Counted from the first letter of the stretch, positions 33,891 through 43,854 are shown. The stretch: 64,000 nucleotides of DNA from Chlorobiota bacterium (GCA_039810485.1 JBDHXA010000002.1:8597-72596), one strand, 5' to 3'. The notes: a model not told the origin generated them from the sequence alone. Made by a program: numbers and translations.

Positions 33891-35609
33891 TTAACGATTC
33901 GTATCAGGAACACGCCAAAAGAAAACAAATCCAGCCTTTTCACCTATTTCGTGAATATTCTTGTGTTGCCTGCATATATGAGCATCTTGCATTTTACAAA
34001 CGAAATAAGCGGGCTTGTCAATGTCGCCATCAAACAACCAGTTCTCGAAATCATCAGGCAAAATATCGAGCGATGAAGGCGCAAGACAGCGAGGCTTTTT
34101 AGTATAAAACAAATGTGCGTAGCTCTTGAATCCTACGGGTTTAACATAGCAGTCCTTATCTTGTAAAGATTGATAGAATTCAACAGCCGATGCTTGTGTA
34201 TATCCTTCAATTTTAGGAGCAATAATCGGTAAAAATAACCAAGATGAGATTACTGTCGAAGCAAAAAGCACAATTATTTTTGAACGGTTTGGCAGAAACA
34301 AAGAAACTATAATTGCAAATCCAAACGTTATCCCTATAGTAGTTTCCCATTTTCCCCATTGTACTGGAGCCGTTAAATTTGCTCTTGCAAATTCATCGTT
34401 GATAAATGGAAGCAAATTGTCTTTAAATAGACCAATAACCGGAATTGCTGAAAAAGCCAAAGCCCATAAAATGCCAAATATGCCTACTATTGCTGAATGT
34501 ATTTTTTTCCACTTTATCGTACCTGATAATATTTCATCTAACCAATTGGCAGCTAAAAATGCAATAGGAAAATAACAAAGAGATGAATAATGCACTATTT
34601 TTGTTTTTACGATTGAAAATATTGCTAAGACGACAATTAGCAGAACTATATTCCATAGGCGAACTATTTTAAAAGAATAATTCTTTTCAGCTGTAAAAAA
34701 TGACCATAATGCAAAAACCGAAGCAGGAAAGCAGCCGAACAATAATACAATAAAATGATAATAAAACGGGCCGCTGTGTCCAGCATCGCCTGTAGTAAGT
34801 AGTCGTATTTGATACCGAATAAATTCTGATACGAACCATGTTCCATTACGCAAAATATCAATCCCAAACCATAACCCTGCGGTTAATAAAGAACAAATAA
34901 GAAAAACAGCCCAAAATGGAAGCGAAGAAATTAGATATTTTCCATAAATCTGAAAAAATTTTCGTTGCAATGCCGAATGTTGTATTGTATTTTCAGTTAC
35001 AGAAGAATAAGCATTCTGTTTAAAAAATACAATACTCATCACAATTAGCATTGCAGTGCTTGAAACCAACAAAGCAACTGGTCCCTTTGTCAGCATTGCT
35101 AAACCAATAAGAATGCCTGCTAATGCTGAATTTCGAAGTTTTTTATCCTCTTTTCCTATGGCTAATGTCATTATCCCTGAAAAGATAAGAAGATTAAATA
35201 AAGGATCTATAATAGCCGAACGAAAATATAAATACGGCAAAAATGATCCACAATAGGAAGCTACCCATAGATATCCAAATCTTCTTGAACGAATGTGCTT
35301 TCCCCAAAGAAATAGTAGAGGCAGCGTAATAATGCCAATTAAAGCATTTGGCAAACGCGCCGCAAATTCATTCACTCCAAATATAGACATCAAACTGGCT
35401 TGCAGCCATATAAATAATGGCGGTTTTTCCCAAAAAGGTGAATAATCAATCTGAACACGCAAATAATCGCCCGTTGTCAGCATTTCTCGAGCGCATTCAG
35501 CAAAATTTATTTCATCCCAATCAAACAGCCGTACATTACCCAAAAATGGTATAAATAATATGGCTGCAACAGCCATAATCAATAGCACATCTTTTTTTAC
35601 GCTCATCAA
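33891..35609 (-). CDS. GT-C fold glycosyltransferase, family 39 / ArnT-like (dolichyl-phosphate-mannose-protein mannosyltransferase-like), with C-terminal soluble domain.
   Basis: About 11-12 TM helices. An N-terminal DE motif in the first loop (FDWDEINFAE) is typical of PMT/ArnT GT-C enzymes. 572 aa. Confidence 0.65.
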   Translation of the reverse strand: MMSVKKDVLLIMAVAAILFIPFLGNVRLFDWDEINFAECAREMLTTGDYLRVQIDYSPFWEKPPLFIWLQASLMSIFGVNEFAARLPNALIGIITLPLLFLWGKHIRSRRFGYLWVASYCGSFLPYLYFRSAIIDPLFNLLIFSGIMTLAIGKEDKKLRNSALAGILIGLAMLTKGPVALLVSSTAMLIVMSIVFFKQNAYSSVTENTIQHSALQRKFFQIYGKYLISSLPFWAVFLICSLLTAGLWFGIDILRNGTWFVSEFIRYQIRLLTTGDAGHSGPFYYHFIVLLFGCFPASVFALWSFFTAEKNYSFKIVRLWNIVLLIVVLAIFSIVKTKIVHYSSLCYFPIAFLAANWLDEILSGTIKWKKIHSAIVGIFGILWALAFSAIPVIGLFKDNLLPFINDEFARANLTAPVQWGKWETTIGITFGFAIIVSLFLPNRSKIIVLFASTVISSWLFLPIIAPKIEGYTQASAVEFYQSLQDKDCYVKPVGFKSYAHLFYTKKPRCLAPSSLDILPDDFENWLFDGDIDKPAYFVCKMQDAHICRQHKNIHEIGEKAGFVFFWRVPDTNR

Positions 35610-35632
35610 ATATCACCGCCAATTAAATAATG

Positions 35633-36991
35633 CTAAAATTCAATAGATGCCGAAGCAATTGCCAGTAATCTGTCGGTCTCTTCTGCTACTGATGATTCAG
35701 CAATCAATCTGATTATCGGCTCAGTGTTAGAAAGCCGCGCATGAATCCACGAATTTTCAAATTTGAAATATCGTCCATCTTCACGACTAATCACAGCGTT
35801 AGGAAAAGTTTGTTCTAAGCGTCTGAAAATCTCGGCTTCATCTCCTTTGATTGAGGTTTTTATTTTTTTCATCTTATATTGAGGCATTGTGGCTAATAAT
35901 TCTGATAATGTGCCTCCAAATTCTGTAAGCAAATGTATTATTAGAGCTGAACCAACCAAAGAATCGCGCCCATAATGGCATGAAGGAAAAATTACGCCTC
36001 CGCTTCCTTCGCCTCCTATTGCTGCATTAAGACGCTGCATAGCACGAACAACATTAATTTCTCCGACAGGAGATCTAAATGTTTTGCCGTAATATTTACG
36101 TACAATCGTGTCTACAGCGCTTGTTGTCGAGTAATTTACCACACAAATAGGGTCATATCCCTTTGTCATTCTGGCTGAGAATACCGAAGCTGCTGCCAAC
36201 GTTATTGTCATTTCTTCATTTATAGGATTTCCCTTTTCATCAATAAGCGCCAATCGGTCTGCATCAGGATCAACAGCAATTCCGAAATCAGCGTTGTGTT
36301 TTTTTACTGCTTCAGCAATATCTTGTAGATGAATTGGCAGCGGTTCAGGCGTATGTGGGAAAATGCCAGTTCCATCACAATATAATGGTATTACTTCGCA
36401 ATTCAAAGCTTCTAACAGCGAAGGTATTGCAACGGAACCTGCAGCGTTTACAGCATCTACCACTATGCGATATTGCTTTTTTTGCATATGCTGAAGCGCT
36501 TCATTAGAAAATAATTTTACTACTTCAGAAATATGGCGATTGATAATATTTGGAATGGAATATTGTACAACGGAAGCTGTAATTATTGGAAATTCTAAAG
36601 GCTTATCTAAGTATGACCAAAATGTATGGTTTTCATCGTCATCTAAAAATACTCCGTCGCTTCCAAGAAATTTCATTCCATTCCATTCAGAAGGATTGTG
36701 AGAAGCCGTTAGAACAATGCAGCCTGCAACATCATTAGTCATTTCTGCGTAGATTTGTGCTGTTGGTGTTGGCGCTATTCCTAAAATATGGACTTGGCGT
36801 CCCATTGCTGTCAAAGTGCCGACAGCAATATTTTCCATCCATTTTCCCGACGGTCTGCCATCGCGAGCAATGGCAATTATACCGTCCGGAAGATACTTAG
36901 CAAAAGCGGCACTGTAACTTGATATTATATTGGGTGTTAACGCATCCCCTTGAGTGGCGCGAACTCCTGATATTGAGCGTATAAACGGCAT
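35633..36991 (-). CDS. Phosphohexomutase (phosphoglucosamine mutase / phosphomannomutase family).
   Basis: Active-site Ser loop TASHNPSEWNGMKF, metal-binding DPDADR, sugar-binding GEGSGG. Confidence 0.85.
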   Translation of the reverse strand: MPFIRSISGVRATQGDALTPNIISSYSAAFAKYLPDGIIAIARDGRPSGKWMENIAVGTLTAMGRQVHILGIAPTPTAQIYAEMTNDVAGCIVLTASHNPSEWNGMKFLGSDGVFLDDDENHTFWSYLDKPLEFPIITASVVQYSIPNIINRHISEVVKLFSNEALQHMQKKQYRIVVDAVNAAGSVAIPSLLEALNCEVIPLYCDGTGIFPHTPEPLPIHLQDIAEAVKKHNADFGIAVDPDADRLALIDEKGNPINEEMTITLAAASVFSARMTKGYDPICVVNYSTTSAVDTIVRKYYGKTFRSPVGEINVVRAMQRLNAAIGGEGSGGVIFPSCHYGRDSLVGSALIIHLLTEFGGTLSELLATMPQYKMKKIKTSIKGDEAEIFRRLEQTFPNAVISREDGRYFKFENSWIHARLSNTEPIIRLIAESSVAEETDRLLAIASASIEF

Positions 36992-42975: not shown

Positions 42976-42993
42976 AGCAGCATTTATAAAATT

Positions 42994-43854
42994 TTACATT
43001 TTTTTTTTGCTCATGTATTTATGATGCAGGGGAATGTCCATTGATTCTCGTTTATATAAATTATGTCGCAAAGGATGATCGAGAATATGTGCCGCATACA
43101 TTTGTTTGTAAAATGGCGATGAATGGATCGCCCTATCGCTTGGCAATGAACGGTCAATATCAATTTTTCTCCATTCATGTTCAAAGTTAAATTCTTCAAT
43201 TGCAGCAAGCTCTCCGCACCAGCGATTGCTATAATAAAATATTATGTCATCAAAATATATTGAAGTTGCAGGAAGATAAAGTTTAGGATTTGTAGCGTCA
43301 AACAGTCGAAGTGCGGCTTTTGTGCCGGAGTAAATATCAACATCAATAGCGATAAATCCGACTGGCGCTGTTTCTGTAAGTGTCCGAACAAATCCGCTGA
43401 TTGTGTCTTCAATATTACCGAAAATAATTGAAGCTCGACCATTCATTTTCTTTTGCAGAGAATCGGTGTCGCCCATTGAAAAATCACCGGGAATCCACAT
43501 TTCTGGATGATCTTTATAGGTTAATCCATCAGGAATACCAACGCCGGTGTCGAATCCATAAATATGCATTTTTATACCGGTTTCAGCTGAAATCATAGAA
43601 GATAGATTGCACATATTTTCTAATCCGGCGCCGTGAGCCACTCCGAACTCACAGCATGTTACTTCTGAAATGCCAAAGTATTTTGCAGTGTCGGCAGCGC
43701 GCAGCAAACCATAAGCGTAATGAGGGCGCGAGAGCAAGCCGAATTCTTCTTTCTCTCGCATAGATCCAAACAACCGCGTTAATTCGCGTGCAATCAGCGA
43801 AGAAAATGACCAATGTCCAAATTTCGTCAGTAATGAACTCATTGAATTTTGCAT
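42994..43854 (-). CDS. TylF/MycF-family (macrocin-O-methyltransferase-like) SAM-dependent sugar O-methyltransferase.
   Basis: CEFGVAHGAGL (SAM motif), FIAIDVDIYSGTKAAL (TylF-type metal and SAM region). Confidence 0.6.
   Translation of the reverse strand: MQNSMSSLLTKFGHWSFSSLIARELTRLFGSMREKEEFGLLSRPHYAYGLLRAADTAKYFGISEVTCCEFGVAHGAGLENMCNLSSMISAETGIKMHIYGFDTGVGIPDGLTYKDHPEMWIPGDFSMGDTDSLQKKMNGRASIIFGNIEDTISGFVRTLTETAPVGFIAIDVDIYSGTKAALRLFDATNPKLYLPATSIYFDDIIFYYSNRWCGELAAIEEFNFEHEWRKIDIDRSLPSDRAIHSSPFYKQMYAAHILDHPLRHNLYKRESMDIPLHHKYMSKKKM

Follow-up and report, generated by a model that had tools for sequence, protein, structure and literature searches.

What does a compact group of glycan-related genes do when its central enzyme joins a glycosyltransferase, two methyltransferase domains and a helical repeat in a single chain? 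The question is raised by positions 33891-43854 of the 64,000-nucleotide stretch of Chlorobiota DNA analyzed here (the window). The initial annotation read this region of about 10 kb as one locus for making and attaching a methylated sugar, possibly to the cargo of the T9SS. All seven of its ORFs are present where that annotation placed them, but the region combines two unrelated groups of genes, of which only one, a predicted three-gene operon, is a conserved unit.

Two gene groups in one region

The features on which this division rests are as follows.

33891-35609, minus strand: polytopic GT-C (PMT_2) glycosyltransferase of 572 aa, from a PMT_2 HMM match and hydrophobic segments
35633-36991, minus strand: phosphohexomutase of 452 aa, from four PGM/PMM domains
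43854-39599, minus strand: operon of the 286-aa methyltransferase, 989-aa fusion and 135-aa cupin genes
42994-43854, minus strand: soluble methyltransferase of 286 aa with a distant TylF/CalS11-type fold, encoded at the head of the operon
40006-42975, minus strand: soluble fusion of 989 aa, GT-B plus class-I methyltransferase plus TPR plus FkbM-like methyltransferase, the core gene
39599-40006, minus strand: WbuC-like cupin of 135 aa, partner of the fusion gene, from a sub-threshold TIGR04366 match

The GT-C and phosphohexomutase genes form a separate two-gene unit, the former 23 nt downstream of the latter. The 572-aa protein matches PMT_2 (PF13231) at 57.2 bits against a cut-off of 26.1, and its approximately 11 hydrophobic segments describe a polytopic membrane topology; orthology to ArnT can be discarded, as the equivalog model NF009784 scores 83 where 567 is required. 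The mutase has the complete four-domain architecture (PF02878, PF02879, PF02880 and PF00408, all above threshold), and its best NCBIfam match, an archaeal-type GlmM equivalog, lies just under the cut-off (422 versus 439). Two plus-strand genes, one encoding 387 aa of no recognized family and the other a 308-aa LRR protein, and a 475-nt divergent gap lie between this pair and the trio. Homologues of the GT-C and of the mutase are lacking from all related loci examined, and the adjacency of pair and trio is specific to this window: even the closest relative, in which the fusion protein is 63% identical and the LRR and 387-aa neighbors are retained, is without the pair. The evidence accordingly does not support a single locus, or one pathway to which the GT-C and the mutase both belong.

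The trio itself is as tightly packed as the initial annotation had it. The stop codon of the 989-aa gene and the start of the cupin gene overlap by 1 nt (TAATG), and the 286-aa and 989-aa genes are 18 nt apart (19 in the earlier count). None of the three proteins has a membrane segment or signal peptide, so all work in the cytoplasm. Packing and domain calls together uphold the prediction of an operon for glycan glycosyltransfer and methylation built around a rare multidomain enzyme.

A rare fusion enzyme and its two partners

Four segments make up the 989-aa protein.

41896-42975, minus strand: GT-B domain, residues 1-360 (CgeB-like, PF13524; GT4-like fold), from HMM, AF2 and Foldseek
41191-41733, minus strand: class-I SAM methyltransferase (Methyltransf_11/25), residues 415-595, from HMM and motifs
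40774-41061, minus strand: about three TPR-like helical hairpins, residues 639-734, from sub-threshold HMMs and AF2
40009-40755, minus strand: divergent FkbM-like methyltransferase domain, residues 741-989, from a near-threshold PF05050 match

The domain calls of the initial annotation divide unevenly under HMM scans: the GT-B, class-I methyltransferase, PMT_2 and phosphohexomutase assignments clear their Pfam thresholds, the FkbM, TPR and TylF assignments are sub-threshold or supported at the level of fold, and the WxcM/FdtA assignment is lost. The GT-B domain is the best defined, with PF13524 (Glyco_trans_1_2) at 111.8 bits against 25 over residues 210-343, AF2 pLDDT above 90 throughout residues 1-360, and a near-invariant NNMRLFEATGCGA motif retained. 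Foldseek aligns approximately 410 columns with TreT and HepE (E about 1e-6), bearing out, with the AF2 model, a GT-B fold of two Rossmann-like domains. CgeB, the spore-crust glycosyltransferase of Bacillus subtilis, shares the PF13524 GT-B C-terminal domain, a likeness of family only: in CgeB it belongs to a single-domain protein with DUF3880 and a spore-coat context, whereas here it has two methyltransferases and TPRs attached to it and the lineage is Gram-negative.

The class-I methyltransferase matches Methyltransf_11 at 60.9 bits against 21.2 (residues 435-522). Residues E436, G438, G442 and D462 are invariant, motif I (LEIGCSSGYY) and the acidic D462 being so across 54 sequences, and the Foldseek and PDB profile matches are small-molecule and sugar methyltransferases. 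For the TPR segment, HMM scores remain below threshold (TPR_2, 20.6 versus 27; TPR_16, 19.2 versus 32.7), but AF2 models six helices in residues 639-734 at pLDDT 70-90. The FkbM call fares similarly: PF05050 scores 20.1 bits on the whole protein and 22.4 on the excised domain, below the gathering threshold of 22.7, yet 8 of 9 homologous domains match it (best E 8e-7), so that residues 741-989 are, by sequence, a divergent relative of the FkbM methyltransferases. AF2 confidence is low beyond residue 880. Free-standing homologues of this domain, 38-43% identical, occur in cupin-DegT loci of Planctomycetota and Chthoniobacterales. The architecture as a whole is rare and, as first supposed, uncharacterized: a set of 1.84 billion representative proteins contains just two clusters, at 50% identity, that extend over its full length, and full-length relatives are confined to Ignavibacteria/Kapabacteria-like MAGs.

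The 286-aa protein probably starts at Met5, since its database copy has 282 aa. Its assignment as a TylF-type enzyme survives at the level of fold and motif, but not of HMM: Pfam and NCBIfam returned no match even at E up to 10, TylF PF05711 included. A family profile searched against the PDB finds CalS11 (E 7.8e-4), in an alignment that spans the EFGVxxG SAM motif and the acidic DVDIY (D-x-D-x-Y) motif. The AF2 model (pLDDT 88) has as its best Foldseek matches in the PDB CalS11 (2.5e-7), MeT1 and MycF, at TM 0.5-0.56. Residues D171, D173, D202 and D203 are invariant in the family and may bind metal. SAM motif I and the DxDxY motif are held in common with CalS11 (a TDP-rhamnose 3'-O-methyltransferase), MycF and MeT1, while extra N- and C-terminal helices set the protein apart. 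The settings differ too: TylF enzymes belong to antibiotic loci, and the 286-aa family to polysaccharide loci, where its metagenomic neighbors include genes for GT2, GT4, Wzx, Wzy-like, Wzm/Wzt and FkbM proteins and often a 2OG-Fe(II) oxygenase. Taken together, the fold and motifs suggest a distant TylF/CalS11-like, putative metal-dependent sugar O-methyltransferase.

The cupin had been called a WxcM/FdtA-like ketoisomerase, but no PF05523 or other Pfam match appears at E up to 10, and NCBIfam and PDB profile searches give no similarity to that group. A single family model, TIGR04366 for WbuC, matches the cupin and its 19 relatives; all 20 match at about 1e-7 and about 30 bits, below the cut-off of 42 (the cupin itself scores 30.1), and annotated WbuC genes give weak direct tblastn matches. 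WbuC is the closest family, at a score short of membership; our literature search found no demonstrated function for it. Gene context suggests a role in nucleotide-sugar metabolism. Both WbuC and the cupin occur in glycan gene clusters, but the cupin family, unlike WbuC, is in other phyla characteristically encoded together with a DegT aminotransferase in one operon. A small cupin directly upstream of a DegT-family aminotransferase, as in the relatives, is the classical FdtA-FdtB arrangement, and an HxH motif is common to the cupin and FdtA/QdtA/WxcM. In this window, unlike in FdtA systems, no DegT gene lies beside the cupin, and a 3-keto product would have no aminotransferase to act on it.

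A shortened cassette under purifying selection

The fusion and cupin genes are the invariant core of the unit, occurring together in every relative (L001, L002, L010-L014, L169 and L172-L174); the comparison of neighborhoods preserves this core and drops the GT-C and mutase. Around it, gene content varies. In sister lineages the cupin is followed by a LegC/PseC-like DegT aminotransferase, a 260-aa methyltransferase and GT4/GT2 transferases. For instance, L169 reads Maf, 282 aa, 985 aa, cupin and DegT before its contig ends, and in L002, L012 and L014 the cassette is extended by a methyltransferase, a GT1 and a GT2/GT4 protein. Further afield, an Azospirillum plasmid carries methyltransferase, cupin, DegT and methyltransferase genes in the same order, adjoining glycosyltransferases, and the cupin-DegT pair recurs in Planctomycetota and in Chthoniobacterales, in the latter beside Wzm/Wzt genes.

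The trio in this window is a shortened version of the longer sister-lineage cassette. As DegT and the additional enzymes are gone, any amino-sugar branch is either missing here or located elsewhere in the genome. The trimmed trio is under purifying selection: its ORFs show dN of 0.085-0.31 with dS saturated, the lowest value being that of the cupin against L010, and cupin identity is 77-87% among all relatives and no lower than 70% across phyla. The reading frames are intact and preserve their catalytic motifs, and the 989-aa protein keeps every near-invariant motif.

A predicted glycan-tailoring module

The reading we favor, with moderate confidence, is that 43854-39599 (minus strand) is one operon for three soluble cytoplasmic proteins that serve as an accessory glycan-tailoring module rather than as a self-contained polysaccharide pathway. 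Its probable role is to extend a cell-surface glycan by a sugar and to methylate it, an activity uncharacterized but ordinary in kind. The GT-B domain would transfer one sugar from a nucleotide sugar to a cytoplasmic acceptor, which may be a growing lipid-linked glycan or a protein modified ahead of export. Three methyltransferase domains (Methyltransf_11, FkbM-like and the separate TylF/CalS11-like protein) would methylate the transferred sugar or its neighbors, giving a multiply methylated residue, probably at the chain end. The TPR segment may contact the acceptor or partner enzymes, and the WbuC-like cupin would act on the nucleotide-sugar precursor, perhaps in a step of the keto-sugar isomerase/epimerase type. 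We infer the substrates, the acceptor and the cupin reaction, every substrate assignment being by analogy because the GT+MT, cupin and 286-aa families have no characterized member; the methyltransferase domains could also target something other than a sugar, for example protein lysine or a lipid.

The pathway is incomplete in the window because the adjacent DegT and glycosyltransferases are absent. Among the 43 of 47 window ORFs of at least 150 aa that were scanned with Pfam, there is no flippase, polymerase, initiating transferase, NDP-sugar synthesis gene or ABC exporter. Their absence from the scanned ORFs argues against an O-antigen, capsule or EPS cluster. With no capsule or O-antigen cluster seen in the window, the match to a known cluster that would have refuted the initial annotation did not arise.

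Candidate acceptors

Flagellin as the acceptor is the most probable of the rival readings. Residues 1-600 of the fusion belong to a large uncharacterized family spanning 446 GTDB species, usually with dehydratase and DegT genes downstream. This GT+MT module has a strong association with genes of the flagellar filament: a flagellin gene lies within 10 kb of it in 20 of 79 GTDB loci, and flagellin, FliW, FlgK or YcgR in 25 of the 79, against 0 flagellin matches in 588 kb of control sequence. These flagellar-linked loci span Nitrospirota, Verrucomicrobiota, Desulfobacterota, Methylomonas and Thiotrichales, but the events are not independent, because 16 of the 20 flagellin-linked loci are from Nitrospirota. 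The module is also present in MAGs of Polyangiaceae/Myxococcales and of Fibrobacter, lineages that are not known to have flagella.

Known flagellin glycosylation islands of Pseudomonas, Enterobacteriaceae and Geobacillus offer a precedent, in that they combine GT-MT fusions, FkbM/AdoMet methyltransferases, TPR glycosyltransferases and DegT aminotransferases, all cytoplasmic (PMC4875605, PMC5109656). Homologues of the N-terminal GT+MT module adjoin flagellin, FliW and FlgK in many genomes. By this analogy, the 989-aa enzyme, guided by its TPRs, would build or attach a methylated glycan on cytoplasmic flagellin that is yet to be exported. The cytoplasmic location of the trio proteins, a MotB-like gene in the window and the flagellar genes of some Kapabacteria and Ignavibacteria (PMC7509429) are consistent with such a role. 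Against it, a flagellin HMM finds nothing in six frames of the 64-kb window, neither the window nor the four-domain subfamily loci (L001, L002, L010-L014) contain flagellin, FliW or FlgK, and the called genes of L169 and L172-L174 match no flagellar Pfam family. Unlike the islands, moreover, the window has no aminotransferase or sugar-nucleotide gene, and no island protein of the four-domain architecture has been characterized. Membership of a flagellin glycosylation island is rejected by the absence of a filament gene, and flagellin as the acceptor we consider unlikely.

The link to T9SS cargo had as its sole basis the CTD proteins in the window. There are four, scattered among housekeeping genes and with no conserved linkage to the trio, and what hint related sequences give about the acceptor points to flagellin or polysaccharide loci instead. 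A fuller version would make all of 33891-43854 one pathway, starting from a sugar phosphate supplied by the mutase, from which the trio would produce a methylated sugar for the GT-C to link, outside the membrane, to the glycan that anchors T9SS cargo or to O-glycoproteins. GT-C enzymes do act with lipid-linked sugars on the periplasmic side, and the genes lie within 10 kb of each other. Such a scheme is nevertheless highly improbable, given the intervening genes and gap, the missing pair in related loci, the dispersed CTD genes and the lack, among the scanned window ORFs, of a polyprenyl-phosphate sugar synthase or flippase linking cytoplasmic and periplasmic steps. Least probable of all is a decaying remnant, left without a product after loss of DegT, methyltransferase and glycosyltransferases: stepwise gene loss across relatives (full cassette, then DegT and methyltransferase only, then none) and a frameshifted 286-aa gene in L001 would fit, but the intact fusion, a cupin 87% identical at low dN, and the same minimal pair on at least 24 contigs of the second lineage, that of the 63% identical fusion, argue against it.

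Implications for the wider family

While an accessory tailoring module remains our preferred reading, a bolder scheme, which we regard as very unlikely, deserves mention for its consequences. The 989-aa enzyme and the cupin could constitute a self-sufficient protein glycosylation system, in which the TPRs would pick a specific protein acceptor, be it flagellin or a different surface protein destined for export. The cupin, as a new and sequence-unrelated type of NDP-keto-sugar isomerase, would make the precursor of the sugar that the GT-B domain attaches, and the fused and accessory methyltransferases would per-O-methylate that sugar. Were this so, the GT+MT family and its 446 species would represent a previously unrecognized, phylum-spanning class of protein glycosyltransferase-methyltransferases.

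Gene content and conservation of 33891-43854

The region at 33891-43854 was read in the initial annotation as one glycan methylation and attachment locus, yet the GT-C glycosyltransferase and mutase that this reading requires are missing from all related loci. Seven ORFs lie within the region:

33891-35609, minus strand: 572-aa GT-C glycosyltransferase (PMT_2, 57 bits versus a cut-off of 26; ~11 hydrophobic segments)
35633-36991, minus strand: 452-aa phosphohexomutase, four PGM/PMM domains, separated by 23 nt from the GT-C gene downstream
37467-38630, plus strand: 387-aa protein outside any family, with an N-terminal hydrophobic segment
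38654-39580, plus strand: 308-aa protein with leucine-rich repeats (LRR)
39599-40006, minus strand: 135-aa cupin, weak WbuC match
40006-42975, minus strand: 989-aa fusion of GT-B glycosyltransferase, class-I methyltransferase, TPR-like and FkbM-like domains
42994-43854, minus strand: 286-aa methyltransferase, TylF-like fold

The last three genes (the trio) are tightly packed: an 18-nt gap separates the 286-aa gene from the fusion, and the fusion and cupin genes overlap by 1 nt (TAATG). We compared the fusion with its full-length relatives in other genomes (loci L001, L002, L010-L014, L169 and L172-L174, mostly Ignavibacteria/Kapabacteria-like MAGs). The cupin gene lies directly downstream in all cases, at 77-87% identity, and no locus among them carries a homolog of the GT-C or the mutase, so this pair is a window-specific neighbor. 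In essence, what looked like a 10-kb pathway is two gene groups side by side by chance, and only a small accessory operon remains as the unit. The closest relative, an organism seen on at least 24 contigs with a fusion 63% identical, keeps the convergent LRR and 387-aa genes and has unrelated genes beyond them. In the window the LRR gene begins 23 nt after the 387-aa gene; in the closest relative the two are 70% (387-aa) and 64% (LRR) identical and again converge on the cupin gene.

The 572-aa protein scores 83 against 567 for the ArnT equivalog model and is a GT-C glycosyltransferase, not an ArnT ortholog; the top NCBIfam match of the mutase is archaeal-type GlmM (422 against 439). A promoter and terminator scan gave results at chance level, and scans of 33000-45000 returned a single sub-threshold Rfam match, within a coding region, and short chance repeats only.

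The trio belongs to a cassette that is longer elsewhere. Locus L169 reads Maf, 282 aa, 985 aa, cupin and DegT before its contig ends, while L001 holds the same gene set plus a 260-aa methyltransferase. Four loci (L002, L011, L012 and L014) encode a 1269-aa version of the fusion that has one more methyltransferase domain at its N terminus; after it come cupin, DegT, methyltransferase, GT1 and a 1140-aa GT2/GT4 protein, although L011 is a short contig that ends within the GT1 gene. In the window and the L010 lineage the cassette stops after the cupin, and the 64-kb window contains no DegT, dehydratase or c3 homolog. Even so, the trio is a functional reduced variant and not debris, because its genes are intact, near-invariant family motifs are retained and dN is low (cupin 0.085, 286-aa gene 0.20, fusion 0.29-0.31, with dS saturated).

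Domain architecture of the 989-aa fusion

The glycosyltransferase and class-I methyltransferase calls hold up well for the first ~600 residues. Both PF13524 (Glyco_trans_1_2, 111.8 bits) and Methyltransf_11 (60.9 bits) lie far over threshold, and the predicted fold agrees: in an AlphaFold model built from 54 homologs, residues 1-595 have pLDDT >90, with Foldseek aligning the N-terminal part to the GT4-type GT-B enzymes TreT and HepE over ~410 columns and residues 415-595 to class-I methyltransferases. The remainder is less clear-cut. TPR models stay sub-threshold, but six helices are modeled with moderate confidence at 639-734. Likewise, the C-terminal 250 residues narrowly miss the FkbM cut-off of 22.7 bits (20.1 for the whole protein, 22.4 for the excised domain), whereas eight of nine homologous domains match, with E down to 8e-7, and we treat this domain as a divergent, putative FkbM-like methyltransferase.

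The sum 989 + 286 = 1275 invites the idea that relatives of 1261-1275 aa join the two trio proteins in one chain; BLASTP found no similarity, and what these relatives carry in addition at the N terminus is a further Methyltransf_11-type domain. Glycan and flagellin glycosylation loci commonly encode multidomain GT/MT/TPR/FkbM enzymes. The exact composition and order seen here are nonetheless rare, with only two representatives among 1.84 billion representative proteins spanning all 989 residues, and the earlier statement that the fusion is uncharacterized stands, with no studied member in any of the three trio families.

Three conserved families

The 286-aa protein, initially called a TylF-type sugar O-methyltransferase, has no match in Pfam or NCBIfam. 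A profile of 32 relatives does pick up the TDP-rhamnose 3'-O-methyltransferase CalS11 (E 7.8e-4) with the SAM and DxDxY motifs aligned, and a model of the protein (pLDDT 88) has CalS11, MeT1 and MycF as top matches. Since the HMMs are silent and profile and model favor these enzymes, the TylF-type call is right only at the level of fold. The family has 481 confirmed metagenomic loci; its recurring neighbors include GT2 (13 loci), GT4 (8), Wzx (7), FkbM (5), Wzy-like (5) and Wzm/Wzt (3-4) genes, which marks the loci as polysaccharide loci. The commonest neighbor is a 2OG-Fe(II) oxygenase (PF13640, 17 loci), and in Bradyrhizobium (L003/L004 10001-12699, L089 and L090) the homolog forms a small, conserved cluster with this oxygenase and an FkbM methyltransferase. 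Adjacency to the 989-aa gene is confined to the window, L001 and L169. In L001 (7280-8133) the homolog is frameshifted near residue ~243, and could be a pseudogene or reflect an assembly error. We are left with a ~285-aa TylF-like family of polysaccharide loci that has neither a Pfam model nor a characterized member.

The cupin had been assigned as a WxcM/FdtA-like ketoisomerase, an assignment that must be withdrawn: no FdtA or WxcM signal appears in Pfam, NCBIfam or PDB profiles. Instead, the protein and 19 relatives all match the WbuC cupin model weakly (~30 bits versus 42), and tblastn gives faint matches to annotated WbuC genes. PDB sequence and profile searches found nothing meaningful, and we found no functional work on WbuC in the literature. 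The family numbers >3,400 homologs with identities of 70% or more across Planctomycetota, Verrucomicrobiota, Bacteroidota and Ignavibacteria, phyla in which the cupin gene overlaps the 5' end of a LegC/PseC-like DegT gene, with a methyltransferase and/or GT1 following. This overlap is almost always present in the family, which includes the window's cupin and those of L006-L009 and L175 and for which Pfam has no model. The cupin-DegT loci also contain a free-standing homolog of the FkbM-like domain (38-43% identical), and a distant cupin copy on an Azospirillum plasmid sits in the order GT-GT1-MT-cupin-DegT-MT. Conserved across phyla directly upstream of DegT, this 137-aa family lacks a characterized member.

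The GT+MT module (residues 3-595 of the fusion) has 1,981 matches at E up to 1e-30 among the same 1.84 billion representatives. In most relatives it forms the C-terminal end behind variable N-terminal additions (radical SAM/B12, exostosin, GT2, GT11, FkbM and TPR domains are recorded), and the window's order, module first and TPR and FkbM after, is unusual. GTDB species representatives were scanned as well, and 446 of these genomes carry the module, with ~50% identity over more than 10 phyla: Nitrospirota, Desulfobacterota, Ignavibacteria, Chloroflexota, Verrucomicrobiota, Fibrobacterota, Myxococcota, Bdellovibrionota, Planctomycetota, Acidobacteriota and Proteobacteria. Neighbors were clustered in 79 loci, 65 of which extend 5 kb or more downstream; counting same-strand genes within 5 kb among those 65, an NAD-dependent 4,6-dehydratase-like gene follows in 39, a PseC/LegC-like DegT in 37 and a ~365-aa unknown protein in 27. 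This last protein (L030 13850-14965, L055 11776-12843, L171 13924-14808) matches nothing in Pfam or NCBIfam and comes after either the module gene or the DegT that accompanies it in 30/79 loci, among them loci on an Ignavibacteriaceae chromosome and a Rhizobium chromid. Another frequent neighbor is a 1392-aa FkbM+GT2+TPR protein.

Flagellar genes recur beside the module. Flagellin is encoded within 10 kb in 20/79 loci, and flagellin, FliW, FlgK or YcgR nearby in 25/79; 83 other loci, taken as a control and amounting to 588 kb, gave no flagellin match. Nitrospirota account for 16 of the 20 flagellin-linked loci, the non-Nitrospirota remainder comprising Verrucomicrobiota, two Desulfobacterota, two Methylomonas, a Thiotrichales and one unclassified MAG. 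A polysaccharide-type locus on a Rhizobium chromid has the module too, as do MAGs of Myxococcales and Fibrobacter, lineages not known to be flagellated. The flagellin neighborhoods match flagellin glycosylation islands as published, where GT-MT fusions are found together with FkbM methyltransferases and DegT aminotransferases (PMC4875605, PMC5109656). Literature on Glyco_trans_1_2, on CgeB with flagellin and on Nitrospira flagellin glycosylation yielded no functional work on these families. The module is a conserved family, often in flagellar filament loci, without a characterized member.

Possible acceptors and other genes of the window

None of the trio proteins has a hydrophobic segment, so all three are cytoplasmic. 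The reading with the most support is an accessory module of the cytoplasm that would attach a single sugar to an acceptor, either a glycan or a glycoprotein, and methylate it at several positions, with the cupin perhaps handling a nucleotide-sugar step. The associations of the families point to a polysaccharide chain or flagellin as the foremost candidate acceptors. It is improbable, in our estimation, that fusion and cupin on their own make up a complete protein glycosyltransferase-methyltransferase system that includes a new kind of sugar isomerase.

T9SS cargo is anchored only after passage through the inner membrane, and direct modification by a soluble cytoplasmic trio is therefore mechanistically unlikely. 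Nor do the comparative data show any link between operon and T9SS genes that would favor the proposed modification of the cargo-anchoring glycan. The window's four proteins with the T9SS tail domain Por_Secre_tail are dispersed among housekeeping genes:

9734-12727: FG-GAP/ASH protein
46646-48814, minus strand: 722-aa deiminase (PF04371, 126 bits)
49278-52184: S8 subtilase
60763-63882: SprB/Ig protein

The 722-aa protein joins a Porphyromonas-type peptidyl-arginine deiminase domain to a T9SS C-terminal sorting domain, an architecture resembling PPAD but in an Ignavibacteria/Kapabacteria-like genome; PF04371 includes agmatine deiminases as well. Three further minus-strand genes deserve mention. 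A sigma-54-dependent activator (44612-45958) has its AAA+ domain from residue 42, leaving no space for a receiver or sensor domain, and the gene at 32637-33731 fuses an NYN ribonuclease-like domain to a cold-shock DNA/RNA-binding domain. The third (26579-27430) encodes a MotB-like protein (MotB_plug + OmpA), overlaps the gene of an HD-domain response regulator and has no MotA gene upstream; it is the sole motility-related hint in the window. Among Kapabacteria/Ignavibacteria, some members are flagellated and others not (PMC7509429).

For the window itself the result is mainly corrective, and its wider value lies in the three conserved families. Characterizing any one of them would allow annotation of thousands of genes, and would clarify how methylated amino-sugar glycans are built up on the flagella or surface polymers of environmental bacteria.
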